A stretch of 64,000 nucleotides of DNA from an uncultured Acidobacteriota bacterium (GCA_963741955.1 CAVUKB010000006.1:448001-512000), one strand, 5' to 3'; positions 1,041 to 41,135 are shown, counted from the first letter of the stretch. Numbers and translations are program-made. The notes: generated by a model not told the origin, from the letters alone.

Positions 1041-2207
<1,167 letters not shown>

Positions 2208-2897: not shown

Positions 2898-3174
2898 ACC
2901 GTCGGACGCAACGCCGCGCCCGACGCCGGAATTTCCCCTCCTCGGAGTCTGCGCGGTAGGAACGGTCCTACTACGAAAGCGGATCAGCGGTCCAAATCCG
3001 AATGAATTTGGCCTCGCTGCTCCTTTTTCTCGCTACGGACGTCTCTACCGCGCAGACTCCGCCCACTCGACGCAGCGGCGGTCGCGCGCTTACATCTGCG
3101 AAATCCCTTTCCCATCACGGTTTTTCGGCATCAGCCGGCGTTATACTGATGGAAACCTTAGTGAGGCCTTCACA

Positions 3175-4029: not shown

Positions 4030-4088
4030 CCCAGAGGCACCAACCGTTCTCGTGACTGCACCGCCGTGCGAACCGGGTCGGCAACTAC

Positions 4089-4171
4089 GAATGCAGAACG
4101 AAGAGTTGAGAAAGGACACCAGCCCTCCTTTCATTCTGAATTCTGAACTCTGCCTTCTGCCTTCTGCCTTC
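4089..4171. repeat. Convergent heptamer repeats (GCAGAA-type then TTCTGAA/TTCTGCC)
   Basis: ttctgaa ttctgaa ctctgcc ttctgcc ttctgcc after gaatgcagaa...gagaa. Confidence 0.6.
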
Positions 4172-4273
4172 GTCGGGAGCGGTCGCATCACTTCTCCCCT
4201 CGAGGTTTGTGCGCACGCCCCCACCGTCCCACGGGAGTTCCCCGGTTGCGCCGGCATTGCTGCCTGATGTTTA

Positions 4274-22272: not shown

Positions 22273-22356
22273 GTTCGACTCCTCTTCGTTTCGTTCGGGT
22301 TCTGCAGCAGGAGTCGTACGGGTGGCAGGAAAAATACAGGGAGCCGAACGGTCGGA

Positions 22357-23062
22357 GGGCATCGCGGATCGTGGATCGAAAAGCAGCGCGGATCGTGGAT
22401 TGAGGATCGTGGATCTGAAAGACATCGATTATCGTGTATCGCGCATCGAGGATCCGAGATGCATCGACGCTCGAGGTTCCGCGGCCAGCCCCGTAGGGGC
22501 GTTTGACAATAGCCCAGGACGCAGTCCTGGGGTTCCGGTCCTGCAGCCCACACTCCCTCAGCCCCGGAGGGGCGATTGAACCATCCCATTCCTCGAGGCT
22601 CGAAGGACATCGTGGATCGTGGATTGAGGATCGCGGATCTGAAAGACATCGATTATCGCGTATCGCGCATCGAGGATCCGAGGTGCATCGACGCCCGTGG
22701 TTCGGGCACAGCCCCGTAGGGGCGTTTGACAATAGCCCGGGACGCAGTCCTGGGTTTCCGGTCCTGCAGCCCACACTCCCTCAGCCCCGGAGGGGCGATT
22801 GAACCATCCCATTCCTCGAGGCTCGAAGGACATCGTGGATCGTGGATTGAGGATCGCGGATCTGAAAGACGTCGAGGGGCTCGCATCGTGGATCAAACAG
22901 CCTCGCGCATCGAGGATCCGAGGTGCATCGACGCCCGTGGTTCGGGCACAGCCCCGTAGGGGCGTTTGACAATAGCCCGGGACGCAGTCCTGGGTTTCCG
23001 GTCCGGAAGCGCCCCGAGAGCCCCGTAGGGGCCATTGAACGATTGAACCATCCGATTCCTCG
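22357..23062. repeat. Three tandem 220-240 bp units of REP-like family A with GGATCGT heptamers
   Basis: GCCCCGTAGGGGCGTTTGACAATAGCCC(A/G)GGACGCAGTCCTGGG near 22488, 22711, 22951. Confidence 0.88.
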
Positions 23063-23206: not shown

Positions 23207-23284
23207 TGGGGTGGGTAGTGGGATTCGAACCCACGACCTTCGGAGCCACAATCCGACGTTCTAACCAACTGAACTATACCCACC
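23207..23284 (-). tRNA. tRNA-His(GTG)
   Basis: Reverse complement GGTGGGTATAGTTCAGTTGGTTAGAACGTCGGATTGTGGCTCCGAAGGTCGTGGGTTCGAATCCCACTACCCACCCCA; G-1:C73 signature. Confidence 0.97.
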
Positions 23285-23313: not shown

Positions 23314-23390
<77 letters not shown>

Positions 23391-23446: not shown

Positions 23447-23510
23447 GCAACATGGCGGGTGCGAATCGAATTTCGCAGATTCCAGGCGACTCGAATTCGG
23501 CTCGTACAGC

Positions 23511-23612
23511 AACCCGGGGACTGCGACCCGGGCTATTGTCAAACGCCCCTACGGGGCTGTCCCCGAACCTCGGCCCTCGATGTCTTTCAGATCCTCGATC
23601 CGCGATGCCTTT
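23511..23612. repeat. REP-like family A unit, inverted orientation
   Basis: cccggggactgcgacccgggctattgtcaaacgcccctacggggct. Confidence 0.8.
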
Positions 23613-23650
23613 CGAGCTTGTCACCCTCCGCTCTTCGACGGCTGCGCGTC

Positions 23651-24601
23651 TCATCGGGCGGTCGGACGTGCGCCGGTCAGCTCATGCTCGAACCATTTCC
23701 ACGTCCGCGCGAGACCGTCTTCCAGTTCGACCGGCTCGGGAAGTCCGGTCAGGTTGCGAAGCTTCGTCCCATCGAGGACGCTCCTCTGCTGCTCGCCGGC
23801 TTTCGCCGGGCCGTGAACGGACGGGACCTCGATCCCGGAGACCTTCCGCAGGGTCGCGTAGAGGTCGACCACCGAAGTCTCGACCCCGGTTCCGACGTTG
23901 AAGGAGCCTTCGAGCTTCATCGAAGAGGCAGCCATGTTCGCGCGAACGACATCGGCGACGAAGACGTAGTCGCGGGTCTGAGCTCCGTCGCCGTTGATGG
24001 TCACCGGCTCGCCCCGCAGCATTTTCCCGGCGAAGATCGCGACCACTCCCGCTTCGCCGTCCGCGCGCTGCCTCGGGCCGTAGACGTTCGCGTAGCGGAG
24101 CGCCACCGCGGAGAGGCCGAAGACCTGGCGGTAGTAGTTGAGGTACTGCTCGAATGCGAACTTCGAGCAGCCATACGGCGACATCGGCATGGCGGGATGT
24201 TCCTCGGTCTGAGGGACGTGGATCGGATCGCCGTAGATCGCTCCGCCGCTCGACGCGAAGACGATCCGCTCGACGCCGGACTCCTTCGCCGCTTGCAGCA
24301 GACGCAACGCTCCGACGACGTTCACCTCTGCGTCGAAAGCCGGATCGGCCACCGAGTGCCGGACGTCCATCTGCGCTGCGTGATGACTGACCAGATCGAC
24401 ACCGCCTTCGAACGCACGCGCCACGGCACCGGCGTCGTTGAGGTCACCAACGACGAGCTCCGCACGCGGGTCGACGTTCTCACGCCGTCCCGTCGAAAGG
24501 TTGTCGAGAATGCGCACCTTCCAACCGTCGGCGAGATATGCGTCGGCCAGATGCGATCCGATGAAGCCGGCCCCGCCGGTAATGAGAACGGTTTTCGTCA
24601 T
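23651..24601 (-). CDS. NAD-dependent epimerase/dehydratase (UDP-glucose 4-epimerase-like)
   Basis: [26 protein letters not shown] (YxxxK), [17 protein letters not shown]. Confidence 0.92.
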
Positions 24602-25018
24602 TCAGTTCCCCTTCTCCCCTTTCTCCAGAATCAAGGTCTGTCGCTGCGACAGTTCCTGGCGGTCATTGAGCACCCTTCCTTCCATCTCGATCCAAGCGTG
24701 GCCGATCACGGCCTTTCCGGGATCTCGGTCGAGCGACACACGTAGAACGGCGGGATATCCCCGGCGCAGAAGCATGTCGCGAAGTGCGAGAGACCTGGTA
24801 AGGCAAGCCGGACGGAGAACGTGCCACCGGGCCGCCGCAGCAAGATCCCGTGCGATCGTCTCCGCGGACTTCGCCGGGACGCGCCGTGCCGGCTTTATCG
24901 GCAGAAGCATCGTCCGGATGACGTGTCGGGGGCGGAATGCGACCATCGCACTCGCCCAGGTCAGCCGAAGGTACGCCTCGGCGAACAGCAACAGGTCTGA
25001 CACGGTGAACGGCGGCAT
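24602..25018 (-). CDS. Lasso peptide B2-type transglutaminase-like leader peptidase
   Basis: CLTRSLAL...LLRRGYPAVLRV...GHAWIE...ND: catalytic Cys/His motif of B2 proteases; follows RRE gene. Confidence 0.85.
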   Translation of the reverse strand: MPPFTVSDLLLFAEAYLRLTWASAMVAFRPRHVIRTMLLPIKPARRVPAKSAETIARDLAAAARWHVLRPACLTRSLALRDMLLRRGYPAVLRVSLDRDPGKAVIGHAWIEMEGRVLNDRQELSQRQTLILEKGEKGN

Positions 25019-25037
25019 AACCCCGGTTCCCCGGCAC

Positions 25038-25304
25038 TCACTCTTTCGGGCTGACGAAACCGCGATCGCGGAGGAGCTCGAGAAAATCCGCGACGTCCCG
25101 ATCCGCTTCCTCGCGAGGAATTCCGTATTCGCGCGCAAGCTCGGTGGCAATGGCGGCGTCGTCATTCTCGCGGAGCCGCTTCCAGATGAAGCTCCCGGTC
25201 GGATTCAGCCCGAGGGTCGTGCCGGTCGCAACGTCGACGAGCACGGCTTCCGGTCCGACCATCTGCCAGGCAACGGACGATGTCGTTTCCCATTTCATGT
25301 TCAC
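25038..25304 (-). CDS. PqqD family RiPP recognition element (RRE)
   Basis: 88 aa; EAVLVD...GLNPTGSFIW..L...IATELAREYGIPREEADRDVADFLELLRDRGFV. Confidence 0.92.
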   Translation of the reverse strand: MNMKWETTSSVAWQMVGPEAVLVDVATGTTLGLNPTGSFIWKRLRENDDAAIATELAREYGIPREEADRDVADFLELLRDRGFVSPKE

Positions 25305-25311
25305 GTTGCTC

Positions 25312-26121
25312 CTACGATTTTCTCGCCACCACGTGCGCGTATCCGTGAATCACAGTTGCGACGATCTCGTACCCCGCCTCCCTCAACTCGTCTTCAACTT
25401 CGCCGGGCGTGTACATACGGCGATAGAAGAATGTCGCCATAGACTCTCCGGGCTCGAGCGGCCGCCGTCCCAGGATTCTACGGAGGACGCTCGCCACCCG
25501 TCGTCTCACGCCGACGGAGCGCGATTCGCCGCCCCGCTTCCAGAACGATACGAGCAGAGGCGCGCCCGGTCGCAGACCGCGATGGATGGCGCGGAGGAAT
25601 TCTATCCTACGCTCCCGTCCGATCATGTGGGTGTACGCCGCCCATCCGACCACGGCGCCGTCGAATGGAGCATTTCTCTCCGGAACCGCGTCCGGAGCAG
25701 CGAAGAGTGTCTCTACCGAACCTCGAGGAGCGAGCTTCTCGACGTTTGCGCAGAGCTCGCGATACAACTCCGGAACACACTCGGTCGCCGTGACCTGATG
25801 GCCCCGCCGGACCAGATCGAGGACCTCCCGCCCTCCACCTGCACTGGTCACGAGGAGATGTCCGTCCGCCGGAAAGTGCTTCGTGATCGCTCTCTCTTCC
25901 CACGCGTAAAGCCCGGCCAGAGTGTGGTGGTCGTCCCGGTACTTCCCGTCCGTCCGGTAGTCCTCGGCCGTCATACGGTCGAGCGTTTCATCCGATGCAA
26001 AACAGAAGATCAGCAACTCTACGGCAGCGATCCAGTGGCGTACGAAGAAATTCGGAAGGCGGTAGGCCGCACGGAGCAGCTTCACGGTACCGCTCGCACG
26101 CGTTTTCGTCGGAGGCGTCAT
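25312..26121 (-). CDS. Class I SAM-dependent methyltransferase
   Basis: GLYAWEE..I; LLVTSAGGGRE motif I variant; FDGAVVGW; LRPGAPLLVSF; translationally coupled. Confidence 0.78.
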   Translation of the reverse strand: MTPPTKTRASGTVKLLRAAYRLPNFFVRHWIAAVELLIFCFASDETLDRMTAEDYRTDGKYRDDHHTLAGLYAWEERAITKHFPADGHLLVTSAGGGREVLDLVRRGHQVTATECVPELYRELCANVEKLAPRGSVETLFAAPDAVPERNAPFDGAVVGWAAYTHMIGRERRIEFLRAIHRGLRPGAPLLVSFWKRGGESRSVGVRRRVASVLRRILGRRPLEPGESMATFFYRRMYTPGEVEDELREAGYEIVATVIHGYAHVVARKS

Positions 26122-26939
26122 CGACCTGCGCCGGCGTCCTCGAGAGCGCGGACGAACGGCTCCCACACCGGCGCTTCCGGCGACCATCCCATCCGAAACA
26201 CCGGAATGCTCTCGACGAGATTCTGGATGTTCAAGAGCGTCGCCTCCCACAGCCCGCGAACCGGATACACACGCAGCGACCGGACCAGAGCCTTCACCGC
26301 GTCTCCTCGCTCGAGCCGTGACAGCGAGAACCGGGCACTCTTGTCCAGCTCGGCCACAGCCCCCATCGCCACCATCCCGCGAGGGGCATCCATCGCAGCC
26401 AGCGCGCCCCAGAAGCCGTTGGCACCGAGCACGAACGGCATCCCTCGCACCACCACTTCCTCATCGGAAATGACGTCGAAAGGGCTCGTGGAAGCAAGCG
26501 TCGTTTTTCCCGCCCCCGAGGGACCGAAGAAGGCCCAACCACGCGCCCCGTCGGACACCGCAGCTCCGTGCAGCGCGAATCCGCCGTCCAGCGGGAGCAC
26601 CGCGGTCAGAGCGGTTCTCAACGCCGCCATGAATGCGTACGTACAGCGGTGGCGGCGAAATAGACTTCCCCTCCGCTCGAATGGAAGGACCTCGGCCTGA
26701 AAGTCGTCGTGGACGACTCGCACACGATCCTCGAACCAGACGATGCGAGCCGGGGTTCCGCGCTTCGGTACGTCGGGGAATTGAAAGATCGCCTCCGGCA
26801 CGATGTCCATCCGGAATTCCGGGAGCGGCGAGACGGCGGTGGGGGTTCCGATGGTTCGGAGGTAAGTTTCTTCTTCCTGAGTAAACGGGAAGCCGCCGAG
26901 ATTTTCGATCCGAAATGGAAGTTCCGCGAGATGGATCAA
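26118..26939 (-). CDS. HPr kinase-related P-loop protein (PadeK/ScmC-like)
   Basis: LHGAAV...FFGPSGAGKTTLA...ISDEEVVVR; overlaps neighbours by 4 nt. Confidence 0.8.
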   Translation of the reverse strand: MIHLAELPFRIENLGGFPFTQEEETYLRTIGTPTAVSPLPEFRMDIVPEAIFQFPDVPKRGTPARIVWFEDRVRVVHDDFQAEVLPFERRGSLFRRHRCTYAFMAALRTALTAVLPLDGGFALHGAAVSDGARGWAFFGPSGAGKTTLASTSPFDVISDEEVVVRGMPFVLGANGFWGALAAMDAPRGMVAMGAVAELDKSARFSLSRLERGDAVKALVRSLRVYPVRGLWEATLLNIQNLVESIPVFRMGWSPEAPVWEPFVRALEDAGAGR

Positions 26940-27982
26940 GCGCTCGCGCGCTCCTTCCGGCGCCGCTCTTCGGCGACCTCCCAGGCGATCTCCGCGCGCG
27001 TGAGGAACGCCGGGTCGGGGTTCAGAGGATCCCCGGTCGCCTCGGCGGCGAGCGCGGGACAGTACGAGTAGATCGAATACGGAGGTTCCATCGTGCGCAT
27101 CCGTCCATTCGCGTCGTCTGCAACCGTCGCAGCATCGCGCCGGACCTGCGAGGTCCTCCAGAGCTCACGAAGCCGGATCTCACGTACGTTCCCCAGAGAC
27201 GTATGCCGCCACTGGATACAGGGGAAGACGTTTCCTTCGGGGTCAACGGCCATGGTGATGCGCCCCAGCCCGCAGTTGGCGGCCTTCTCCGGACGCTCGA
27301 TGAATCCGAGGGTATTCGATTCGAGTCCGATCTCGGCAACCCGCCGCATCGCGTCACGCGAGGCGGTGTAAACCAGTGGACCACGATCTCCATCGTCGCG
27401 GGGAGTGATCGTCGCATCCATCCGGTACTTCACGCCGAGGGAGGCAGCGAGGTCGAGCATCTGATCGATCTGATGCTCGTTCAGATTCGTCACGGGCGTC
27501 TTCAGAAGTACTCGCACTCCTTCATCACGAAGGCGCGTCAACCCGGAGAGCATCGCGTCGAAGGACCCCGGGAGTCCGGTCGTCCGGTCGTGGACGTCCC
27601 GCGTCGCCCCGTGCATGCTGATCTCCACAGCTGCCGGCTGCAACGCAGCGATCTCTTTCGCCGTCTCCGCGTCGACCAGACTTCCGTTCGTGAAGACCCG
27701 CAATGCGAACGCGCGTTCCCGAACCGCCTTCGCTACGGAAAGGAAGTCCGGGCTCGCCAGCGCTTCTCCTCCCGTGAGTGTGACGGTGAGGGTGCCGAGC
27801 TCGCGTAGATCGTCGAGGACGGTCATCCATTCGTCGCGCTCGAGCCGGCGGACATCGGAATGCCGCGGGTTGTAGCAGAAGACGCACCTCCAGTTGCAGC
27901 GGTACGTCAGCTCGAGAGACGCGGTGAGGGGCTGAGCGAGTGCGAATGCCCGGTCGGAGAACGAGCTGGAAGGAGTACCCAT
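26936..27982 (-). CDS. Radical SAM enzyme with SPASM/Twitch-type C-terminal domain
   Basis: ELTYRCNWRCVFCY (CxxxCxxC), LTGGEA, FTNG, ISMHG; C-term CGLGR...DPEGNVFPC...YCPALA. Confidence 0.95.
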   Translation of the reverse strand: MGTPSSSFSDRAFALAQPLTASLELTYRCNWRCVFCYNPRHSDVRRLERDEWMTVLDDLRELGTLTVTLTGGEALASPDFLSVAKAVRERAFALRVFTNGSLVDAETAKEIAALQPAAVEISMHGATRDVHDRTTGLPGSFDAMLSGLTRLRDEGVRVLLKTPVTNLNEHQIDQMLDLAASLGVKYRMDATITPRDDGDRGPLVYTASRDAMRRVAEIGLESNTLGFIERPEKAANCGLGRITMAVDPEGNVFPCIQWRHTSLGNVREIRLRELWRTSQVRRDAATVADDANGRMRTMEPPYSIYSYCPALAAEATGDPLNPDPAFLTRAEIAWEVAEERRRKERASA

Positions 27983-27989
27983 CAGGCGC

Positions 27990-28154
27990 TCAGCTGAAGG
28001 TTCCGCCGATCTGACAACCCGTATCGCCCACCGTCTTCGAGCAGCTCACTCCGACGGCGGCAGCATCGAGCTGCTGTTCCCAGGCGATGGCTGGCTTCTC
28101 GTAATCTGGCCGGTGCTCTCCCTGGCTCTCGGAGGGGGTTTCTGTTTCTTTCAA
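27990..28154 (-). CDS. Putative RiPP precursor peptide (54 aa)
   Basis: AAGGAG RBS then TTG; MKETETPSESQGEHRPDYEKPAIAWEQQLDAAAVGVSCSKTVGDTGCQIGGTFS; stop 7 nt upstream of rSAM start. Confidence 0.82.
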   Translation of the reverse strand: MKETETPSESQGEHRPDYEKPAIAWEQQLDAAAVGVSCSKTVGDTGCQIGGTFS

Positions 28155-28222: not shown

Positions 28223-28765
28223 TTACGGTCGGATCTGGAATGAAGCCGGAGCCGCGCACTTCAGTGGGTCGCCGTCCACGTACGCCTCTGCCTTCCAGGT
28301 CCCGTACAACGAATGACTCATGATCAATGTTCCGGCGACCGGAAGCCGCACGCTGGTTCCGAGCTCCTTTCCTTTCGACCAGCTCACCGGTTCGAGCACG
28401 CGCACCGGCATCGGAAGCGGATAGTCTTCGAGCTTCCTCTGTTTTCCTTTCCCATTCGCGTCGTACGTGAAGGGAATCGCGGTCGACTGGTAGAGATAGC
28501 CGTGGGGAGTGAAGATCCTCACTTCCACCTGGTGGTCGCCGGAGAAGCGATTCGCCGAGCCAGGGTTGAACAAGACCCAGAGATCGATGTCCAGGATCCG
28601 GGTCGCGGAGAAGCCGGCTGCGGGCGCTCCTCCGTCCGATTGCATCGATGTGGCCACCACGGAGACACACCCGCCGTTCCCGCCGGCAGCAGCGAATGCG
28701 GGTGAAACCGCACCTGCGAAGACGACGGTCATCGCCAGAAGAGTCGATCGTATCGTTTTCATCAT
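28223..28765 (-). CDS. Secreted ~180-aa beta-rich protein (paralog of 35717-36256)
   Basis: Signal peptide; two Cys; about 22 substitutions in ~150 mature residues versus second copy (hand alignment). Confidence 0.85.
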   Translation of the reverse strand: MMKTIRSTLLAMTVVFAGAVSPAFAAAGGNGGCVSVVATSMQSDGGAPAAGFSATRILDIDLWVLFNPGSANRFSGDHQVEVRIFTPHGYLYQSTAIPFTYDANGKGKQRKLEDYPLPMPVRVLEPVSWSKGKELGTSVRLPVAGTLIMSHSLYGTWKAEAYVDGDPLKCAAPASFQIRP

Positions 28766-28778
28766 TCACTCTCCCCTG

Positions 28779-31700
28779 TCACGGCGTGACGCAGTAGACG
28801 GAGCCACCTTCGGTCCCCACGTAGATCCAGTTGTTGAGGAAGTCGATGATCGGCGCTCCGACCGAGCCGGCATCGATGGAGCGGACGGTCTGCGACGGAG
28901 AAGCCGTGTTCAGGCCGTTCAGCCTGACCAGTTTTCCGTCTCCGGTGCCGACCCATCCGTCGGTTCCGTTGGTGACGATGTTCGACGGCGAGACGAGAGA
29001 TCCTGCACCGCTGGCCGGAGTTGCCCAGTTCAGTGTCGCGGAGGGGCCGTTGTCGGTCAGACTCCAGACCCGGTTCGTCGTCGTGAAGTAGAGTCGAGTC
29101 GTCGCCCAGTCGGGATAGACGTACGTCTTGATCGGCCCGTCGCCGGTTGGATAGCTCCACAACAGTGTGCCGGTCGCTTCGCTGAGCGCGTAGACGTCGC
29201 CGTTGTTGTTTCCGACGTACAACACGCCGTTCCGGATGGTCGGTGCCGTCTCGGCATCGCCGATCGGAAGAGCCCAGGCCAGCGATGCACCGCCTGCGGT
29301 GTAATTCAGGCACCAGACTGTATTCGAGCTTCCCCCGGATTCCGCGCGACTGGTGAAAAAGAGCCTCTGGGTTGCCGCATCGACGCTCGGGATCGCGGTG
29401 ACTACGCCGATCGCGCTCGCTCCTCCGCCGTTGTCGTAGCTCCAGACGGTCGCTCCCGTTGCGGCGTTGAGCGCGTAGACCACATTCCCCGTGGAGGAGT
29501 TTCTCGTCGCCGCAAACACGAGATCCAAGCCGCCGATCGTGCTCTTGTACTGACGGAATGCGATCGCCACCGGGGCCTGCACCATGTCGCCGAGCTGCGC
29601 GCTCATCCAGAGCCGGACTCCGGTGTCTGCGTCGAAACAGTAGACGTGTCCGTCCTGCGAGGAGACGAACGTGACGCGGGTGCTGCCCGAGATCGGGAAA
29701 AGTGTGGTCGGAACGATGATCGTCCGCCCCTGGGCCGGCGCGTTCATCGCCGGCGGCTTCCACTCCTTCGGTGCGAGCTCGGGCCAGTCACCACCCGGAA
29801 CGCTGACGTTCATCGAGTGGAGGCGGCGATCGTTCGAGACGCTGTAAACCGCGGTGTAGCTCGTCGGCGGAGCGAGCGCAGTCGCGCCGGAGTTGTAGAT
29901 CCAGCGCACGTCCTGGCCCGCCGACGTATCGCGAGGTGATCCGGAAGCGAAAGTTCCGGTCGAGTAAACTCCGGGACCCCCGGTGGCGGTCGCGGTCTGG
30001 CACGAGGAGAGTGATGACTCGCAGCTCCCGGTCGCATCGACGGAGGAGACCTGGTAGGAGTAGGTCGAACCGCCGGTCACGGCAGCGTCATCATAGCTCG
30101 TTGTGGCGACGCCGCTCGTCAGGAGCGTGGCCCCGGTGCACGTCGCGCCGTCGGCGCGGTAGACGTTGTAGGTCGCGCCGGCGGGCGTGCCCGCGGTCCA
30201 CGCGAGGTGGATGGTGTTGCTCGTGGGCGTCGTAAGCGTCAGGCCCGTCGGCGCGCCGGGGGTGGTGCACGAGGTGGTGGTCACCGAGACGCACGAAGAG
30301 GCGACGGACTCGCAGTTGCCGGTGGCGGCATCGACGGCAGTGACGCGGTACCAGTAAGTCGCTCCGGTCGTCGCAGTCGTGTCCGTGTACGACGTTCCGC
30401 TCACGGGTGACGCGTTCAACTTCGTGAAGATACCCGCCGGGCACGTCTCGGTCGAACGGTAGACGTTGTAGGTCACTCCCGCACCGGAGCTGGCCCACGT
30501 CACTGTATTCGAGGTCGAGGAGAGTGGTGATGCGACCACGCTGGCGGGAATCGCCGGCGCGCTGCACGTCGCACACGTGCTGAATCTGAAGCTGCCGATT
30601 CGCGTGTTCCAGTTGAACGATCCATTCGCAGCCAGGTACTCGGTCGTGAACCAGAAAGTGCATTCGTCGGTGGGATCGACGGTGAGCGACGAATAGTCGC
30701 CCCACCGATGCAGCGTCCCGGTCTGAGAGCCTGATCCAGGAAACATCGTGGCCTCGGTCTGCAGAGTGTTCGCCGGATCCGTGGAGAGCCTCCCGGTGTA
30801 TTCGATCGACGGATTGATCGAGGCGCTCGAGATGCTGTATCCGATTGCGATGTCCCCGAACTTGTCCATCGCGATGCTTCCCATCCATCGATCCTCGGTG
30901 GTGCTCGGGTTGTACGTGCTTTGCTGGTAGAGGCTCGGTGTCCCGTTCGGGTCACGAATCTCGTACCACCGGAGCGCCGACTGCTGCGCGCCGCCACCGT
31001 CGGGATCGACGGAATGTGTCACCACCAGCGATTCATGCGTCCCGAAATTGCGATAGGAGAGATGCCACATCAACCGGTCGGCCAGAGTATCGAGGGTATT
31101 CGACGTGCCCGCCTGGGCGATGCAACTTCCTGCCGCGCCATTACACGCGATTGTGATCGGACTGACTCCTATGATCGTCGGACCGCTGATACTCGAATTT
31201 GCGGGCGTCGCAAAATCCGAATGGAACTTCCAGAGCTGTAGACAGCCGCTCGCGTCGGCCGCGCCGCAGCCCGCCGAGGTATTGTCGAATGAGACGAAAA
31301 AGTTCGGCTCCCCGGGCGGAGGTGGGGTCGTTCCGTCCCAGTCTGCAGGGAGAAGACCACCATAGGTGGTTCCGAGATTGAAGTAGATCGCCGATGCGGA
31401 AGGGTTCCCGGCGAGCATTGCGGCACGATCGTAAGCGTAGACGCCGGCGCCTTCCCAGTTCTGGAGCCTCCTGCCGGAGAATTGGTTCACCGACATGTAG
31501 TACGCGTCCCTCCAGACCCCGGACTTGCCGTAGTCGTTGAAGACATCAGTGGTCCCGGCGACGCTCGGGAACGCGTAGCGATACCAGGTTCCGGTCGGAT
31601 CCGGCGATGTGGAGACCGCGACGCACTGATAGAACGGAGCGGCCGGATACCCGCTTCCACCGACCGTGAACGCGAATTGACTCATGAACCAGCGGTCGGC

Positions 31701-32291
31701 CGACGCATCGTACATGACCAGCGGGTCACCCTGGTTCGTGCTGGCACAAAGCCCGCCACCGCCCGAGAAACCGCTCCAGATCGTGTTGCCGGGTGCAGGA
31801 TTGCCGGACGTCGGATAGACGATGCCCCCGTTCTTGTCGAAGATCAGGAAGTCGGTGTTGACCCACTGGATGTAGTGATTGGGGCCGACCTCGCCCTCGG
31901 TATCGGGTGGAGCGACGGATGGCGAGTAGCCTACGATGCCCGTGCCCACGCCTTCGAAGGTCCCGTTCAAAACCGGGGCGAACGTCGCTCCGCCGGCCGT
32001 CTGACGGACCTGGTCCGGTCCGTTGGAAATCCCGTAGGTCCGGTATGGAAGATGTTCGTTCTCCCTCTCCTGCGGAGCTTTTCTCGGTTCCGGATGCGGG
32101 ACGATGCTACGCAGCGGAGGAGAGATGTCAAACGATTCCGGCAGAACCCGGCGCGGAGTCTTGGGCGGCTGCGCTGCCAACAGAGGAAGAGCCGAGAAAG
32201 CGAAAAGGAGTACCGCTCCGTTCGTCAGCAGCGTGCGGATCGCCGTTCCGTTGGTCACGAGGGCGAAGAGTCTTTTCGTGGTGCTCATCAT
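28779..32291 (-). CDS. Large secreted protein: N-terminal propeller-like domain, Cys-containing Fn3 repeats, C-terminal PQQ-like beta-propeller
   Basis: Signal peptide; PPDTEGEVGPNHYIQWVN, DP.VMYD, RWGDYSS; YNVYRS/TYWYRV Fn3; VYCFDADTG..LW and VYALNAATG..VW repeats. Confidence 0.85.
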   Translation of the reverse strand: MMSTTKRLFALVTNGTAIRTLLTNGAVLLFAFSALPLLAAQPPKTPRRVLPESFDISPPLRSIVPHPEPRKAPQERENEHLPYRTYGISNGPDQVRQTAGGATFAPVLNGTFEGVGTGIVGYSPSVAPPDTEGEVGPNHYIQWVNTDFLIFDKNGGIVYPTSGNPAPGNTIWSGFSGGGGLCASTNQGDPLVMYDASADRWFMSQFAFTVGGSGYPAAPFYQCVAVSTSPDPTGTWYRYAFPSVAGTTDVFNDYGKSGVWRDAYYMSVNQFSGRRLQNWEGAGVYAYDRAAMLAGNPSASAIYFNLGTTYGGLLPADWDGTTPPPPGEPNFFVSFDNTSAGCGAADASGCLQLWKFHSDFATPANSSISGPTIIGVSPITIACNGAAGSCIAQAGTSNTLDTLADRLMWHLSYRNFGTHESLVVTHSVDPDGGGAQQSALRWYEIRDPNGTPSLYQQSTYNPSTTEDRWMGSIAMDKFGDIAIGYSISSASINPSIEYTGRLSTDPANTLQTEATMFPGSGSQTGTLHRWGDYSSLTVDPTDECTFWFTTEYLAANGSFNWNTRIGSFRFSTCATCSAPAIPASVVASPLSSTSNTVTWASSGAGVTYNVYRSTETCPAGIFTKLNASPVSGTSYTDTTATTGATYWYRVTAVDAATGNCESVASSCVSVTTTSCTTPGAPTGLTLTTPTSNTIHLAWTAGTPAGATYNVYRADGATCTGATLLTSGVATTSYDDAAVTGGSTYSYQVSSVDATGSCESSLSSCQTATATGGPGVYSTGTFASGSPRDTSAGQDVRWIYNSGATALAPPTSYTAVYSVSNDRRLHSMNVSVPGGDWPELAPKEWKPPAMNAPAQGRTIIVPTTLFPISGSTRVTFVSSQDGHVYCFDADTGVRLWMSAQLGDMVQAPVAIAFRQYKSTIGGLDLVFAATRNSSTGNVVYALNAATGATVWSYDNGGGASAIGVVTAIPSVDAATQRLFFTSRAESGGSSNTVWCLNYTAGGASLAWALPIGDAETAPTIRNGVLYVGNNNGDVYALSEATGTLLWSYPTGDGPIKTYVYPDWATTRLYFTTTNRVWSLTDNGPSATLNWATPASGAGSLVSPSNIVTNGTDGWVGTGDGKLVRLNGLNTASPSQTVRSIDAGSVGAPIIDFLNNWIYVGTEGGSVYCVTP

Positions 32292-32307
32292 GATCTCCTC
32301 CTCGCTC

Positions 32308-35300
32308 TCAGTACCGGACCCAGATGGCGTAGTAGTAGGTCACACCGTTGGTGAGCCCGGTGTGGGTGTATGTGTCGACGGCGCCGAACACGACAGGACG
32401 GTTCGTCACCAGCGTCGTCGCCGAAGGATCGGCCGGCGAGCTCGGATACTGGTCGGTGCGGTAGTTGATGGTCACGGTCGTTCCACTCGATCCGGCTGGC
32501 GGGTCCCACCATTCGAGCAGGTTCTCCCCGCCGCTCGCCGTTCCGGTCGTCGTGACGGTGAATGCCTGGACGGCGAAGGGTGCCGACGTGCACCCCGCCC
32601 CGGTCGTCGCGCTCTTCTGCACCGTATTCGTCTCTTCGACGTTGTTCGATTCGTCCATCGCGCGGACGATGTAGTAATACGTGGTGTTCGCGGCGAGTGC
32701 CGAGGTATCGGAGTAGCTCGTCCCGCTCAGTCGGGTCGCGATCCGGTTCGTCGATGACGGAGTGAACCCACTCGTCGCCGAGCGGTAAACGCTGTAGCTC
32801 AACGGACCCGAACAGTTCGCGGTTCCCGCGCTCCACGAGAGGTCGATCGTGCAGGTCGACGAGACCGAACCCGTGGCGCTCGTGAGCCCCGGGAAAGTCG
32901 GAGCGGTCATGCAGTCGCCGTACGCGATCCCGGACGCGCAGGACGAGAGCGATGACTCACAACTGCCTCCCGCGTCGACTGCCGAAATCTCGTACGAATA
33001 CGTGTTCCCGCCGACGACCGTGTTGTCGGTCCACGACGTCGCGGTAATTCCCGTCGCGACGGCGCTGTAGCTGCTTCCCGGGCACGCGCCATCCGCTCGG
33101 TATACGGTGTACGTCGCCCCGGCCGGAGAGCCGGCGGTCCACGATACGGTCAGCGAGCTCGGAGCATTGGCGACGACCGTACCCACCGTCGGGACGCCCG
33201 GCGGCGTGCAGGCGGCGCACGCCACCGCGCTCGAGCACGCGGACGTCGTCGACATCGGCGTCAGGGCGGTCCCGGGACAATTGTTCTTCGCGATCACGTG
33301 GTAGTAGTAGGTGGTCCCTGCCGCGACGCTCGAATCGGTGTAACCGGTGGCGGTCAGAGCGGTCGCCACGACCACCTTACCCGTCGTGCAGGAGGCATCG
33401 GTGAACCTCTCGATGCTGTAGGTACCGTTGGTTGCGTTGGTTCCCCAGTTCGAAGGAGCGAGCCAGGAGATGTCGATCGAACCGGCGTTGCACGCGAGAA
33501 TCGGTGCGGCGATCGCTGCGGGAGCGGAACAGTTGGTGATGGTCAGTGTCGCCGCATCTTCGACCCGGGTGTCTCCACTGGTGGGGTAATAGTTGCGCGT
33601 ATCGGTCCAGATCGCGTGAGCCTGCCGGTTCGCAGCCGCGATCCCGGTGTAGTCGCCGTATTGATTTCCGTTGTAGTTCGCGTTGGTGCCCGAGTTCTCC
33701 TGCGAATAGCCGACCTTGTTCACGAAGTTCGTGCCGGCATCGACGACATTGATGTTCGGCTCGAAGGAGACGCCGCCGTCGATGGAGCGCGCGTAATACA
33801 TCTGCGAGCGCGTGTTCCCGCCGTCATTCCGCCCGTCGTACCAGCCGACGTTGAGCGTTCCGTCGCTCTGATCGACCTGACCCCACGGAAAGATCTGCGT
33901 GGCCGTACCGGTGTCGTCGTTGACCTTCACCTCGGAAGACCAGGTCGCGCCGCCGTCGGTCGAGTAATTCTCGTAGATGTTGATGTTGGAGCCCGATCCT
34001 GTTGTGGACGGGAAGTCGGGATAGACCACGTAGAGACGGTCGACGAAGATGCTGGAGGGATTGTTGTCGATGCTGATGGAGGCGAACGCGTTCACGCCAC
34101 GCTGATCCTGCATCGGCGGCTTGTTGTTCGTTCCGAAGGACGCGAGATTGTGGTTCCGGCCGACCTGGACCGCGGCGCTCCACGTGGCACCGCCATTGGT
34201 CGACTTCGAAAAGACCGTCCGGTCGCCCGAGCCCACGCCGCCGGTCTGGCTGTACTTGTTCCAGATCGCGTACACGGTTCCATCGCGGCCGATCGTCATC
34301 TGACCGCCGATGTCGCCGCTCCCGGAGAGGACCACCGTGGTCCAGCTGGAGTACGGAGGGTCCGAGTACGCGACCCGTTCGGAGTTGTTTCGATCCCAGA
34401 TAACGAAGATGCGATCGGTGTGCGAGTGCGCCTGGCCCGACGTGGTGTCGATGGCCATCATGTTCTTGTCATCGAACGTCGTGCTGTTGCTCAGCGTGTT
34501 CGCAATGATCGACAGCGCCGACCAGGTCTGGCCGTTGTCCGTCGATCGTGAGACGACCAGCGAGGAGCCCGTCGATCCGAGCGCGGTCTGGTTGATCAGC
34601 ATGTAATTCGCGTACGCGTTTCCCTGACTGTCGAACGCCACGGTCGGATCGCTTCCGAACCAGTACTGCGCGCCACCGAGGCCGCCCGTATCTGCGGCCG
34701 GCCAGGGTGCGCATTGGTAGACCCACGTCGCGCCACCGTCGCTCGAACCGAAGAGAGCCTGTGTCCCGTACGTTTTCGACGCGCCGCCGGTCGGGGACTG
34801 GCACTGCGGAGCCGGATCGCGGTAGAACGAGTTCGATCCCGCGACCATGTGCATCGGATTGTTCGGGTCGACCGCGACCTGCACTTCTCCCTGGTAGGTC
34901 GGGACACCGGTGGGGGCGAGGTCGAGATCTCCTCCGAGAGATGCCGCCTTCAACCCTGTGGCCATCGAGCTCTTCGTCTCGATCTCCCCTTCTTCTTCAC
35001 CCGCGCTCTTCCCGTGCAATTTCGCCCAGGCGATGTGCATGCAACGGACGGGAGGCGGCATCTCCATCTCGATGTGCTTCGCCACCCTCCATGCTTCGAA
35101 TTGCGCCTGAGGATCGACATCCTGGTGCTTGAGCTGATCCACCACCGCGGGCGTCACGATCTGCGCGCAACCATCATCGACGGCTGGAGGCCCCCCTGCA
35201 GCCATCGCCGCGGAGGTGCTCAGCAGGAGGAATGGGAGCGCGAGGAGAGTGCTCGACAGGAGAGAAGCAGCACGACCCGTCGAACGGATGCTCGCGCGGA

Positions 35301-35337
35301 TCCGGAAAAACCGCGAGGAAGGTGCGGTAGACGACAT
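32308..35337 (-). CDS. Large secreted BNR/Asp-box (sialidase-like) protein with Fn3 repeats
   Basis: Signal peptide; Asp-boxes SSDGGATW, STDNGQTW, STNGGATW, STDGGATW, SIDGGVSF; YGDYTGI; several Fn3-like modules. Confidence 0.85.
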   Translation of the reverse strand: MSSTAPSSRFFRIRASIRSTGRAASLLSSTLLALPFLLLSTSAAMAAGGPPAVDDGCAQIVTPAVVDQLKHQDVDPQAQFEAWRVAKHIEMEMPPPVRCMHIAWAKLHGKSAGEEEGEIETKSSMATGLKAASLGGDLDLAPTGVPTYQGEVQVAVDPNNPMHMVAGSNSFYRDPAPQCQSPTGGASKTYGTQALFGSSDGGATWVYQCAPWPAADTGGLGGAQYWFGSDPTVAFDSQGNAYANYMLINQTALGSTGSSLVVSRSTDNGQTWSALSIIANTLSNSTTFDDKNMMAIDTTSGQAHSHTDRIFVIWDRNNSERVAYSDPPYSSWTTVVLSGSGDIGGQMTIGRDGTVYAIWNKYSQTGGVGSGDRTVFSKSTNGGATWSAAVQVGRNHNLASFGTNNKPPMQDQRGVNAFASISIDNNPSSIFVDRLYVVYPDFPSTTGSGSNINIYENYSTDGGATWSSEVKVNDDTGTATQIFPWGQVDQSDGTLNVGWYDGRNDGGNTRSQMYYARSIDGGVSFEPNINVVDAGTNFVNKVGYSQENSGTNANYNGNQYGDYTGIAAANRQAHAIWTDTRNYYPTSGDTRVEDAATLTITNCSAPAAIAAPILACNAGSIDISWLAPSNWGTNATNGTYSIERFTDASCTTGKVVVATALTATGYTDSSVAAGTTYYYHVIAKNNCPGTALTPMSTTSACSSAVACAACTPPGVPTVGTVVANAPSSLTVSWTAGSPAGATYTVYRADGACPGSSYSAVATGITATSWTDNTVVGGNTYSYEISAVDAGGSCESSLSSCASGIAYGDCMTAPTFPGLTSATGSVSSTCTIDLSWSAGTANCSGPLSYSVYRSATSGFTPSSTNRIATRLSGTSYSDTSALAANTTYYYIVRAMDESNNVEETNTVQKSATTGAGCTSAPFAVQAFTVTTTGTASGGENLLEWWDPPAGSSGTTVTINYRTDQYPSSPADPSATTLVTNRPVVFGAVDTYTHTGLTNGVTYYYAIWVRY

Positions 35338-35532
35338 GACATCTCCTTGGGGTCAGAAGACCGGGCGAACCTCAGAGACTCGGGCTGGACTGGCCGCGAT
35401 GGTTGAGACGGAGGCAAATGATGACTGCGATGCTCCAGGATGTATTTTTCCATCGGCTCGCACGACTTCGCGACATGCGCATGTTGGCCTGTCTGACGGC
35501 GTGAACGAAGGTTCCGATGACTTCTCATGACT

Positions 35533-35610
35533 CGTATGGCAGCCGGACTGTCCACGAGGGACTCTCGGCTTTGCGTCCCCGCCTCGCGGCGGGTTTGCTC
35601 TTTTTCTGAG
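35533..35610 (-). ncRNA. GEMM-I (c-di-GMP-I family) riboswitch, A20 variant
   Basis: Reverse complement AAAAAGAGCAAACCCGCCGCGAGGCGGGGACGCAAAGCCGAGAGTCCCTCGTGGACAGTCCGGCTGCCAT matches GCAAACC-GNRA-GGGACGCAAAGCC...GACAG..GGCTGCC consensus. Confidence 0.9.
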
Positions 35611-35629
35611 TCGGATTGACCGCTGGCCG

Positions 35630-35658
35630 ACTTTAAACAGTTGTTACGCGAGTGTCAA
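35630..35658 (-). promoter_or_regulatory. Sigma70 promoter upstream of the riboswitch
   Basis: TTGACA-17nt-TAAAGT on minus strand ~20 nt before the aptamer. Confidence 0.75.
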
Positions 35659-35716
35659 CGAATGGTTACGGAGCCCGGAGACACCTCAGCCGGACTCGTT
35701 GTTGCTCGGATTTCGC

Positions 35717-36256
35717 TCAGGGTCGGATCTCGAAGCTCGCCGGCTCCGCACACTTCAGCGAGTCACCGTCGACGTAGGCCTCCGCGGACCACGTCCCGTA
35801 AAGCGAGTTGCTCATGATCAGCGTCCCCGCGACCGGGAGCCGCACGCTCGTTCCGAGCTCCTTCCCCTTCGCCCAGCTCACCGGCTGGAGCACGCGCACG
35901 TCCAGCGGCAGCGGGTAGCCGTCCAGCTTTCTCTGCGTCCCCTTCCCCTTCGCGTCGTACGTGAAGGGAATCGCGGTGGACTGGTAGAGAAAGCCGTGCG
36001 GAGTGAAGATCTTCAACTCGACCTGGTGATCGCCCGAGAAGCGGTTGGCCGAACCGGGGTTGAAAAGCACCCAGAGGTCGATGTCGAGAATCCGCGTCGC
36101 GGAGAAACTCTCCGCCGGCGCTCCGCCGTTCAACTGCGCCGACGTCGCGATCACCGAGACACATCCGCCGTTGCTCCCCCCGTTCTTCGCGAAGGCCGGA
36201 AGGGCCGCGAAGGCGAGGAGAATCACTGCGGCGAGAATCGTTCGTGTTCTTTTCAT
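35717..36256 (-). CDS. Secreted ~180-aa beta-rich protein (paralog of 28223-28765)
   Basis: AGGAG RBS; MKRTRTILAAVILLAFAALPAFA signal; shared FSATRILDIDLWVLFNPGSANRFSGDHQVE. Confidence 0.85.
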   Translation of the reverse strand: MKRTRTILAAVILLAFAALPAFAKNGGSNGGCVSVIATSAQLNGGAPAESFSATRILDIDLWVLFNPGSANRFSGDHQVELKIFTPHGFLYQSTAIPFTYDAKGKGTQRKLDGYPLPLDVRVLQPVSWAKGKELGTSVRLPVAGTLIMSNSLYGTWSAEAYVDGDSLKCAEPASFEIRP

Positions 36257-36278
36257 GGTCTGCTCCTCTCTCCTTCGG

Positions 36279-38858: not shown

Positions 38859-39169
38859 CTCCGCCTCACTTTTTTTCTCGCCCCACTTCGAGACCTGTAT
38901 TTTTCCGATCCCCTCCGCGACTGATGGACCAGAGGGAACGGATCGACGGTTCCGAAGGGATCGAGCGGGCCCCTCCTGTCCGTCGTGTATCTTCAAAGAG
39001 ACACGAATGGGGTGACGACTGCCTGACCCAACGCTCGCTCCGAGCCCGGGGTGCCGTCGTCACCTCGCCTTCCGCGGATCAATATAACAGCTGAGTCGCG
39101 GACTTATTCACTATCTTTCGTTAGGTTTAGCTATCCCCAAACCGCTAGGGGAGACGGAGCTAACGAAAG

Positions 39170-39722: not shown

Positions 39723-41135
39723 CTACGAAGTGGCGTACTGGACAGCCATTTCGGGGGTGACAGCGGATTTCGAGCGCTTCAGGTGTCGTGCGACGGGGGT
39801 CTGGAAGTCGGTGAAATTGGGGGGTTCGAAGTTGCGGATGTGGCGAATGCAGGCGGATCGCATCGCGCGAAGGTACTGGCCGGTGGGTATTCGCCACTGA
39901 TCGGGGATATCGTTGTCTCTCCACTTGGGCATCAGTTCGGGGGGCGCAGTGGAGCCGAGGCCGAAGCAATCGGCGGCAGCGAGGAGCATCATCGAGTAGA
40001 CGGCTACGGCGAAAGCGGGCAGCGAGTCGACCGATCGCCGGTTGCGCACCTGCGCCTGGCCGACACCGAAGATCTGCTTTTCGTCGCGGTGATTGACCTC
40101 GATATCCCAGCGGCGGAAGTAGGCTTGGACGAGCTCGACGAGCGAGAGTTTCAGGTCGGTACAGATCAGGAACGCCGGTTTGCGATACAGCAGGCGTGAT
40201 TTCTTGCGGAGCCGATAGCCCAGTGGCCGGATCACGACGAGCCGCAGAGGCAGTTCATAACCCGAAGTTTTCCAAAGCACGGGACCGATGGTCTTGATCG
40301 AACAGGCGTGTTCACGACCCGAGGCCCAGACTTGGACCTGTTGCCAGTCGATGGATTGGTCCACGCGGAGTTGATCGGGTGTTGGGGCCTGATCGCCATA
40401 CCAGCGCTTGCGTCCGCGAAGCGGTTGAGAGTTTGGAGGAAAGAACAGCTTCGCGTCGCCTCGGATGCGACCGATCAGGATCGTTCGTTCCGGCAAGTTC
40501 CGCAGAACCGTACGGTTGGTGTAACCGCCGTCAACCACCGGCATCAGCACGCGCTCGCTCGCTCCGAGCTGGTCAAAGTCCTTGCGAGTTTGGATCAGCA
40601 GACGCGTTGCACCGATGGAAAGATTCTGCTCTTTCTGCTGGCGACGATACTCGGCACGTTCCTGCTCGGTTGCTCCGGCCCCCGGGCGAACCGCCGGAGG
40701 CTGGTGATTGAACCGGATCGGGAAGCTGCGCGCCGGACCGGCAGACTGGCCAGTTAAAGGAACACTGATCGCAGCCTGAATGAACCGTTGGGCGCGGATC
40801 AAGTTCGTGTGGAAAGGCGGCGACATCGGATCGCGCTGATAACTCACGCCTGGGATCTTCATGCCCGTCTTGCGCAACTTCGTGTCATCCAGCGGCAGCA
40901 CCAGCGGTGCGTCGAGCGGCAAGTACGCGAGCAGGTGTCGTTCGATGACTCTGAACATCTCGCTCACATCGAACCGACCCTCCGAGAAAACGCGATAGTC
41001 TGCCGACCAGTCCTGCTGCGGATCGCGGCCTGCTTCAATCATTCCGCTTACCGTGTGTCGCCCGGTGCAGTTGAGCAGGCCGATGGCCAACCCACGAACC
41101 CGCTGAAGCACCCGAGCATCACAGGATCCATTCAA
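39723..41135 (-). CDS. DDE transposase (IS701-like); frame is open upstream to the A9 tract
   Basis: LDDTKLRKTG, VVDGGY, YFRRWDIEVNHRDEKQ motifs. Confidence 0.88.
   Translation of the reverse strand: MNGSCDARVLQRVRGLAIGLLNCTGRHTVSGMIEAGRDPQQDWSADYRVFSEGRFDVSEMFRVIERHLLAYLPLDAPLVLPLDDTKLRKTGMKIPGVSYQRDPMSPPFHTNLIRAQRFIQAAISVPLTGQSAGPARSFPIRFNHQPPAVRPGAGATEQERAEYRRQQKEQNLSIGATRLLIQTRKDFDQLGASERVLMPVVDGGYTNRTVLRNLPERTILIGRIRGDAKLFFPPNSQPLRGRKRWYGDQAPTPDQLRVDQSIDWQQVQVWASGREHACSIKTIGPVLWKTSGYELPLRLVVIRPLGYRLRKKSRLLYRKPAFLICTDLKLSLVELVQAYFRRWDIEVNHRDEKQIFGVGQAQVRNRRSVDSLPAFAVAVYSMMLLAAADCFGLGSTAPPELMPKWRDNDIPDQWRIPTGQYLRAMRSACIRHIRNFEPPNFTDFQTPVARHLKRSKSAVTPEMAVQYATS

Follow-up and report, generated by a model that had tools for sequence, protein, structure and literature searches.

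A minus-strand gene cassette in the genome of an uncultured Acidobacteriota bacterium most likely directs, judging from its sequence, the synthesis of a small cross-linked and phosphorylated peptide without a lasso-forming enzyme. It lies at positions 28154-23651 of the window, the 64,000-nucleotide (nt) stretch of DNA analysed here (GCA_963741955.1 CAVUKB010000006.1:448001-512000), and has the make-up of a system for peptides that are made by the ribosome and modified after translation (RiPPs) in which a radical S-adenosylmethionine (SAM) enzyme depends on a RiPP recognition element (RRE). The cassette is real and is conserved in soil-type Acidobacteriota. Its core comprises the precursor peptide, the RRE, the radical SAM enzyme and a P-loop enzyme, with a B2 protease, a methyltransferase and an epimerase as accessories.

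The seven genes of the run are, in the direction of reading:

27990-28154, minus strand: precursor peptide, 54 amino acids (aa), with a TTG start and AAGGAG 5 nt upstream
26936-27982, minus strand: radical SAM enzyme, 348 aa (Pfam Radical_SAM 86 bits, SPASM 33.5 bits)
26118-26939, minus strand: HprK/PEPCK-fold P-loop protein, a putative peptide Ser kinase, 273 aa (PEPCK_ATP 23.3 bits against a cut-off of 26.5)
25312-26121 (longest open reading frame, ORF, 25312-26250), minus strand: SAM-dependent methyltransferase, 269 aa from the ATGA-coupled start
25038-25304, minus strand: PqqD-family discrete RRE, 88 aa (PqqD 71.7 bits)
24602-25018 (longest ORF 24602-25165), minus strand: lasso-type B2 Cys protease, 138 aa from the ATG at 25018
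23651-24601, minus strand: NAD-dependent NDP-sugar epimerase/dehydratase, 316 aa (Epimerase 209 bits)

Read base by base, the peptide and radical SAM genes are separated by 7 nt, the radical SAM and P-loop genes share a TTGA overlap and the P-loop and methyltransferase genes an ATGA overlap, the methyltransferase is followed after 7 nt by PqqD and PqqD after 19 nt by B2, and the TGA of B2 abuts the ATG of the epimerase. The ATGA overlap and the 19-nt gap presuppose starts at 26121 and 25018, which are preferred because the longest-ORF starts at 26250 and 25165 imply overlaps of 133 and 128 nt. A first-pass annotation of this DNA had described just such a tightly coupled run, and all seven genes are present where it placed them, joined by overlaps or by gaps of 0-19 nt. 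Its statement that the cassette contains neither a lasso cyclase nor a transporter also holds, in that Pfam and NCBIfam profiles detected no Asn_synthase or cyclase gene and no transporter within the seven-gene run. Scans for promoters and terminators gave nothing beyond chance level. The source genome (5.4 Mb, 99% complete) encodes one B2 protease, one PqqD protein and one homologue of the P-loop protein, all of them inside the run.

The precursor, MKETETPSESQGEHRPDYEKPAIAWEQQLDAAAVGVSCSKTVGDTGCQIGGTFS, is identical to protein P0097. It features a leader motif, Y18-x-x-P21-x-I-x-W25, followed by Cys38, Cys47 and a C-terminal Ser54. A profile built from 22 such peptides and run against a collection of 5.8 billion proteins matched 113 called proteins of 45-93 aa, none of which bears a functional name. 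Within this family the terminal Ser is present in 112 of 113 members, exactly two Cys in 111, and the leader motif Y-x-x-P-x-[IVLM]-x-W in 110. The spacing among the motif-bearing peptides is similarly constrained, with 13 residues between the Trp and the first Cys in 106 of 110, nine residues between the two Cys in 90 of 110, and a tail of six residues after the second Cys in 98 of 110. The second position after the first Cys is Lys in 76 peptides and Gln in 33. The window peptide departs slightly from this norm, its corresponding distances being 12, 8 and 7.

The residues separating the two Cys are highly variable, and conservation in the core is confined to an invariant Ser and the two invariant Cys. 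The two Cys are likely to be modification sites. In 38 of 110 peptides, Asp and Glu are wholly missing from the segment between the fifth residue ahead of the first Cys and the C-terminus. These peptides therefore offer no acceptor for a lasso macrolactam, and the family is not one of lasso peptides. This bears out two proposals of the first-pass annotation, namely that the cassette is of RiPP type with a genuine precursor and that its product is not a lasso peptide. The first of these draws on the 113 database proteins and on the related loci, in which the short ORF is kept beside the radical SAM gene in 27 of 27 cases, a conservation above chance.

To obtain these loci, 185,579 species genomes underwent a pattern scan that was based on four aligned radical SAM orthologues and used two peptide patterns, a search that is uninformative on other phyla. 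All 27 derive from Acidobacteriota metagenome-assembled genomes assigned to Thermoanaerobaculia, Vicinamibacteria or Holophagales, or unclassified. Gene counts from profile searches of six-frame ORFs place PqqD beside the radical SAM gene in 25 of 27 loci and the HprK-like P-loop gene in 24. Of the three loci lacking the latter, two (L048 and L068) stop at or inside the radical SAM gene and one (L056) is truly without it. The peptide of L069 is degenerate and the radical SAM gene of the same locus is broken into frames; the corresponding frame is split into two or three in L066, L067 and L069, which may reflect assembly frameshifts or decaying copies. The usual gene order is peptide, PqqD, radical SAM enzyme and P-loop protein. 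The window differs from this order, with PqqD and B2 placed behind the P-loop and methyltransferase genes.

An even sample of the phylum gave radical SAM matches at E <= 1e-80 in 41 of 401 genomes, counting the source genome and G207, and matches at the level of orthologues in only three. Among the weaker matches, the 16 loci examined represent a sister family, made up of three loci and 13 of a further 14, the fourteenth (L077) being an orthologue. At 36-40% radical SAM identity, this family keeps the HprK-like, PqqD and radical SAM genes together. The first three sister loci carry HprK-like and PqqD genes together with peptide-like ORFs beside the radical SAM gene; in the 13 further ones, the HprK-like gene adjoins PqqD and the radical SAM gene in nine, and eight encode one or two short peptides (about 38-46 aa) with a YxxP leader near the N-terminus. 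These peptides have two Cys, mostly as Cys-x-Lys, and a terminal Ser or Thr, with another residue, often His or Tyr, replacing the leader Trp. The proteins of the sister family fall below all NCBIfam cut-offs.

The radical SAM enzyme has its CxxxCxxC motif at C29, C33 and C36. Towards its C-terminus only three Cys, C237, C255 and C308, are invariant among four orthologues, in the arrangement Cx12Gx4C...C. A full SPASM domain has a seven-Cys motif and binds two auxiliary clusters. The window enzyme reaches the Pfam SPASM model (33.5 against a cut-off of 21.5 bits), yet the CxxCx5Cx3C block is not seen, and its C-terminal domain looks like a partial SPASM or twitch-like domain with one auxiliary cluster rather than two. 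Among NCBIfam models MftC scores highest (116.8 bits, cut-off 265), followed by NirJ, PqqE and ScmE, all under cut-off, and the StsB and AlbA models also match under cut-off. By sequence, the nearest solved chains are SkfB and PqqE. SkfB forms thioethers, whereas MftC, NirJ and PqqE do not.

The P-loop protein retains what appears to be an intact nucleotide site. In an alignment of 25 sequences, the Walker A residues G142, K145 and T147 are invariant together with Asp159, and His124 and Glu160 are nearly so. An AlphaFold (AF2) model computed from the alignment has a mean predicted local distance difference test (pLDDT) score of 93.4, and a Foldseek search with it ranked ATP-PEPCK first and HprK/P at positions 38-42, which supports an HprK/PEPCK fold. 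The family matches the HprK_rel_B model in 23 of 25 members, HprK_rel_A in 22 and ScmC in 17, never above cut-off. In the protein collection, the Pfam accession PF27840 is precomputed on 43 of 49 homologues, one of which also carries Hpr_kinase_C. Lasso kinases share a His-Lys-Asp-Asp catalytic motif (PMC9266682), and H124, K145, D159 and E160 line up with it when compared by motif description only. An apparent fusion of SPASM and HprK-like domains, P0143, proved to be a frameshift-ridden call with long out-of-frame Arg/Ala stretches, and no genuine fusion is present. In two related loci (L058 at 3548-4567 and L059 at 1830-3409) a further and divergent HprK-like gene lies just upstream of B2, giving two kinase-like genes around one peptide; L059 has a second PqqD gene as well.

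The PqqD-type RRE scores under the cut-offs of the lasso, ScmD, HPr-rel-A and PQQ PqqD models. A predicted complex of PqqD with the precursor scored 0.53, against 0.01 for the best of three controls; its runs share at least 85% of contacts, with a partner pLDDT of at least 53 and no interface given. This earns the mark 'weak support', which in the benchmark for such predictions went to 58 of the 80 complexes of solved structure and to 2 of the 110 pairs that were mismatched; at scores of 0.60 or lower it went to only 7 of the 80, together with both mismatched pairs. As solved structures of RRE-leader complexes exist, the pass may reflect their memorisation by the predictor, and the prediction is not counted as evidence.

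The B2 protease matches Transglut_core3 at 65.8 bits and passes the lasso_biosyn_B2 cut-off (63.6 against 33 bits). Its Cys72 and His107 are invariant in seven of seven aligned sequences. B2 is present in four of the 27 loci (L043, L058, L059 and L066), where it adjoins the precursor in a gene order other than that of the window, and a weak tblastn match was also seen in L050. Of five related genomes searched, two encode B2 above cut-off and three have no match that reaches it. The protease probably removes the leader in the source genome. The methyltransferase matches Methyltransf_25 at 24.7 bits and Methyltransf_11 at 19.5 bits, both under their cut-offs, and daptide_MTase at 27.9 against 175 bits; the epimerase scores 184 bits on the GalE model against a cut-off of 262. 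No homologue of either was found in the 27 loci, and a different, unrelated methyltransferase follows the HprK-like gene in L055. The window methyltransferase is an accessory specific to the source genome. Leader removal by B2 and methylation, which the first-pass annotation had put forward, are in this light traits of the source genome and not of the family.

From gene content, coupling, conservation, motifs and folds we infer the chemical steps, their order and the biological role. We consider it moderately probable, on sequence features, the structural model and analogy, that the four-part core makes a non-lasso modified peptide by means of the radical SAM enzyme, the RRE and a P-loop kinase. 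The RRE would bind the leader motif YxxPx[IV]xW, and the leader would keep the core in front of the radical SAM enzyme with a fixed spacing (13 residues between the Trp and the first Cys); the constant spacing fits such RRE-guided positioning. The radical SAM enzyme would then install one or two intramolecular cross-links involving the two invariant Cys, most likely thioethers. The P-loop enzyme would use ATP to phosphorylate the invariant C-terminal Ser on its side chain, in the manner of paeninodin-type kinases acting on precursors; an invariant terminal Ser combined with an HprK-fold enzyme whose nucleotide site is intact points to Ser phosphorylation of this kind. In the source genome only, the coupled B2 protease would next remove the leader. 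The methyltransferase and the sugar-nucleotide enzymes, namely the epimerase and a distantly encoded NTP_transf_5 nucleotidyltransferase, may decorate the product further, which suggests, by analogy with pseudomycoidin, perhaps a sugar on the phosphate.

Several points weigh against this proposal. Most loci lack B2, so leader removal in the larger part of the family has no explanation in this scheme, and the cassette is without an exporter. The two Cys could merely form a disulfide. A radical SAM enzyme with three C-terminal Cys and best scores to MftC, NirJ and PqqE, which are not thioether formers, would be compatible with several bond types. The P-loop protein falls below every curated cut-off in Pfam and NCBIfam, and the fourth residue of its motif is Glu, not Asp. 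L056 has the peptide and the radical SAM enzyme, but neither a PqqD nor an HprK-like gene in the next 5.9 kb downstream. Finally, the 27 loci are related by descent, and their synteny counts are not independent.

Upstream of the cassette, the window encodes two pairs of secreted proteins and, farther away, the nucleotidyltransferase:

28223-28765, minus strand: secreted beta-sandwich protein of 180 aa (up180), its gene 68 nt upstream of the precursor gene
28779-32291, minus strand: secreted protein of 1170 aa, ending in a PQQ_2/BamB-like beta-propeller of ~370 residues (Pfam)
35720-36250, minus strand: second up180 copy, 80% identical to the first
36279-38996, minus strand: second secreted propeller protein, 905 aa, its propeller domain 54% identical to the first
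45911-47092, minus strand: NTP_transf_5 nucleotidyltransferase (PF14907, 154.5 bits), the sole copy in the genome

The first-pass annotation had missed these proteins (28223-38996) and the NTP_transf_5 gene, as it had the invariant C-terminal Ser and the sister family. The propeller domain occurs in 18 of the 27 loci. In every locus read, it shares the strand of the cassette and terminates just upstream of it, and L048 has the propeller gene placed between those for the peptide and the radical SAM enzyme. Homologues of up180 occur in 11 of the 27 loci. Both the propeller domain and up180 occur exactly twice in the source genome, and all copies fall within 11 kb upstream of the cassette. The minimal form seen in L056 consists of a propeller protein, a 180-aa protein, the peptide, which still ends in Ser, and the radical SAM enzyme. 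No Pfam or NCBIfam family matched up180. Its AF2 model (pLDDT 87) has an Ig-like sandwich fold, and weak structural matches (TM score ~0.4) to Wzt carbohydrate-binding, UNC119 and complement MG domains assign no function. Between the two propeller/180-aa pairs, at 32308-35337, lies a gene for a 1009-aa secreted protein with BNR/sialidase-like and fn3 matches, whose C-terminal part is common to the large proteins of 12 related loci. Among the 13 further sister loci, a search for B2, the 180-aa protein and NTP_transf_5 found none of them; it did not cover the propeller. This link to propeller proteins is the least expected feature of the system, and it could reflect function or merely shared descent.

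In both B2-positive related genomes (L074 and L075), B2 adjoins an NTP_transf_5 gene. The pair sits just upstream of the propeller gene in L074 and a few kb beyond an oppositely oriented pair of big-protein and up180 genes in L075. Beside it are a Ser/Thr protein kinase with PD40 repeats in L074 (5859-8564) and a TonB-dependent receptor with a LytTR response regulator in L075 (11803-15320). The NTP_transf_5 gene of the window is located 18 kb from the cassette, beyond a DDE transposase gene, in a run of glycosyltransferase, epimerase and Asn-synthase-like genes, and is a possible distant accessory of the cassette. The DDE_5 transposase gene (39723-41135) stands between the propeller/cassette block and the glycosyltransferase locus, and may mark a rearrangement that parted NTP_transf_5 from B2. 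The locus itself (41613-62020) is of polysaccharide type, with a Glycos_transf_4 and CoA_binding_3 protein, an epimerase and several GT1, GT2 and GT4 genes. Its 610-aa Asn-synthase-like gene (59049-60881) scores highest on the asparagine synthase model and next on that of the XrtA/PEP-CTERM amidotransferase, all under cut-off. On the other side, the epimerase gene of the cassette is followed by genes for tRNA-His (23207-23283) and tRNA-Pro (23314-23390). In this region (22350-23010 and 23503-23615) a unit of ~223 nt occurs in three to four tandem copies, with one inverted copy on the far side of the tRNA-His and tRNA-Pro genes, right after the epimerase gene.

The peptide may not be a free natural product at all. 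The secreted beta-propeller and beta-sandwich proteins encoded directly upstream could instead use it as a cross-linked subunit, as a ligand or as the precursor of a cofactor. In quinohemoprotein amine dehydrogenase (QHNDH), a small cross-linked gamma subunit sits on a beta-propeller subunit, and PQQ and mycofactocin are peptide-derived cofactors. By analogy, the cassette and the secreted proteins would form one system, with a cross-linked, Ser-phosphorylated and perhaps glycosylated peptide acting as a prosthetic peptide, ligand or anchor of the extracellular propeller protein and its up180 companion. We regard this as unlikely, despite the recurrence of the propeller domain upstream of the cassette, the position of its gene between precursor and radical SAM genes in L048, its enclosure by cassette genes in L074, the confinement of all propeller and up180 copies to the adjoining 11 kb, and top radical SAM family scores to the cofactor maturases MftC and PqqE. 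The sister family keeps the core, yet no up180 or B2 was found in the 14 further loci (13 of them sister), in a search that did not cover the propeller. The peptide lacks a signal peptide and the cassette an exporter, the stretch between the two Cys is as variable as in natural products, and replacement of the leader Trp by His, Tyr or other residues in the sister family argues against a Trp-derived quinone. Adjacency to propeller genes among related genomes may, moreover, simply be inherited. An alternative fate of the terminal Ser was also considered. Class II-IV lanthipeptide synthetases phosphorylate Ser to activate it for elimination, and the P-loop protein might do the same or be an ATPase scaffold, giving a phosphate-free product with the terminal Ser in a cross-link. 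A core in which only one Ser and two Cys are conserved would suit this chemistry, as would the status of the P-loop gene, which is core here (24 of 27 loci and the sister family), whereas the kinase of lasso clusters is an optional tailoring enzyme (PMC9266682). Elimination is nevertheless improbable in our estimate: Pfam and NCBIfam revealed no lyase or cyclase domain among the cassette proteins, the characterised HprK-like RiPP kinases all leave phosphate on Ser, and NTP_transf_5, which acts on phospho-Ser in pseudomycoidin (PMC9266682), co-occurs with B2 in two related genomes.

The accessories raise a separate question, since B2, the methyltransferase and the epimerase could be neighbours that share the transcript without acting on the peptide. 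Their distribution favours this (neither the methyltransferase nor the epimerase in any of the 27 loci, B2 in only four), and we assign it a small chance. B2 is the genome's only copy and has no lasso system to serve, it recurs beside the precursor in L043, L058, L059 and L066 in another gene order, the start and stop codons of the window genes overlap or abut, and an unrelated methyltransferase follows the HprK-like gene in L055. A lasso system whose cyclase is encoded elsewhere in the genome would explain the paeninodin-like combination of RRE, B2, HprK-like protein, YxxP leader and terminal Ser. The genome contains 11 Asn_synthase matches, and in the window core an Asp stands nine residues past a possible cleavage site. 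This is nonetheless very improbable, and the lasso peptide reading was rejected for want of an adjacent cyclase and of an acceptor Asp or Glu in the 38 peptides noted above. No Asn_synthase (PF00733) gene lies in or beside the window cassette, the 27 loci being outside the cyclase search, and the nearest one, the gene at 59049-60881 in the glycosyltransferase locus, scores 35.9 bits on the lasso cyclase model NF033535 against 525, with the other ten unscored.

As an RRE-dependent radical SAM system, the cassette defines a compact and sharply conserved peptide family (113 members plus the sister family) together with its enzymes, and this family is not captured by any curated NCBIfam model. Exact predictions about its product follow from the terminal Ser, which is invariant, from the pair of Cys and from the fixed spacing of leader and core. 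The association with secreted propeller proteins and with a polysaccharide locus gives a hint that the product works at the cell surface instead of serving as an antibiotic. If the peptide does partner the propeller proteins, the peptide-plus-propeller module would be new to Acidobacteriota and reminiscent of the small cross-linked subunit of QHNDH. To our knowledge, few natural products of Acidobacteriota have been characterised so far. A literature search, with supplements outside its scope, found among the papers listed no publication on a cassette of radical SAM, HprK-like and PqqD genes (PMC13692751 proved unrelated) and none for the term SynChlorMet, and the hits listed for HPr-rel-A, TIGR04352, TIGR04249 and ScmC contained only an unrelated 'SCMC'.

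The closest parallels are with the lasso peptide clusters of the paeninodin type, which share with the cassette a discrete PqqD RRE, a B2 protease, an HprK-fold enzyme and a precursor that has a YxxP leader and a conserved Ser at its C-terminus. The first-pass annotation had recognised RRE, B2 and HprK-like kinase as the paeninodin toolkit, an identification that PMC9266682 and PMC13381572 confirm. The paeninodin kinase PadeK phosphorylates the C-terminal Ser hydroxyl of the precursor, not of the mature lasso, and this Ser is conserved wherever a PadeK-like kinase is present; in pseudomycoidin, NTP_transf_5 acts on the phosphorylated Ser and a sugar on the phosphate is reported (PMC9266682). 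Paeninodin-type clusters, which comprise precursor, B1 RRE, B2, cyclase C and HprK-like kinase, often include an NTP transferase too. The source genome likewise encodes an NTP_transf_5 protein, whose counterpart adjoins B2 in two relatives. Unlike paeninodin clusters, the cassette has no macrolactam cyclase; the radical SAM enzyme and the kinase-like gene are core and B2 is optional. About a third of the family peptides also differ from lasso precursors in having no acceptor Asp or Glu.

A second parallel is provided by the linear polyphosphorylated peptides (LPPs) of Bacillota described by Popov et al. 2026 (PMC13381572). Discrete lasso RREs bind a [Y/W]xxPx[L/V/I/F/A] leader element, which the LPP leader resembles, and LPP clusters sit in polysaccharide loci with an associated NTP transferase (PMC13381572). 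The leader motif of the cassette family fits this RRE-bound element as well. Like the LPPs, the cassette would yield a non-lasso RiPP from a lasso-like RRE and an HprK-like kinase with a YxxPx[V/I/L] leader, and it too lies beside a polysaccharide locus. The HprK-like RiPP kinases characterised to date all leave phosphate on Ser, often more than one (PMC9266682, PMC13381572). The LPPs differ by a leader peptidase of SpI type, an MsbA-like exporter, the absence of a radical SAM enzyme and phosphate on Ser3 of a long variable core (PMC13381572). The cassette, for its part, has a radical SAM enzyme, two fixed Cys and a terminal Ser, and none of eight cassette proteins matches a signal-peptidase (S24/S26) or ABC family in Pfam. 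If our reading is correct, the RRE and kinase toolkit of lasso peptides would, after the LPPs, be found reused outside that class for a second time, and for the first time joined to a radical SAM enzyme.

Radical SAM/SPASM, PqqD and HprK-like proteins also occur in combination in the SynChlorMet, HPr-rel-A and GeoRSP systems, uncharacterised groupings defined by NCBIfam/TIGRFAM models. The cassette proteins and their relatives match the ScmC, ScmD, ScmE, ScmF, HprK_rel_A, HprK_rel_B and GeoRSP models, and the likeness to SynChlorMet drawn by the first-pass annotation is real, with all these matches below cut-off. For SynChlorMet (TIGR04248-04251), the scores are 34.9 against 100 bits for ScmD, 101.1 against 400 for ScmE and 79.6 against 400 for ScmF; for ScmC (cut-off 125 bits), the best E-value among the 17 matching P-loop family members is 1e-8, and the window protein is not one of them. 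For HPr-rel-A (TIGR04352, 04353, 04355), PqqD_rel_X reaches 28.3 against 35 bits and the HprK_rel_B score of the window protein is 14.2 against 200, with best E-values of 2.7e-10 and 9.9e-8 for the P-loop family. Membership in SynChlorMet, HPr-rel-A, GeoRSP, the lasso PqqD models, MftC or PqqE was therefore rejected, every score being under cut-off, and the cassette further differs from SynChlorMet in having one radical SAM enzyme, not two.

With the maturases SkfB, CteB, AlbA, PqqE and MftC, the cassette shares the principle of an RRE-guided radical SAM enzyme acting on a short peptide with conserved Cys, and its two invariant Cys appear compatible with a sactipeptide or ranthipeptide thioether. 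It is set apart from these enzymes by a separate RRE, by three rather than seven C-terminal Cys, and by an obligatory kinase-like partner.

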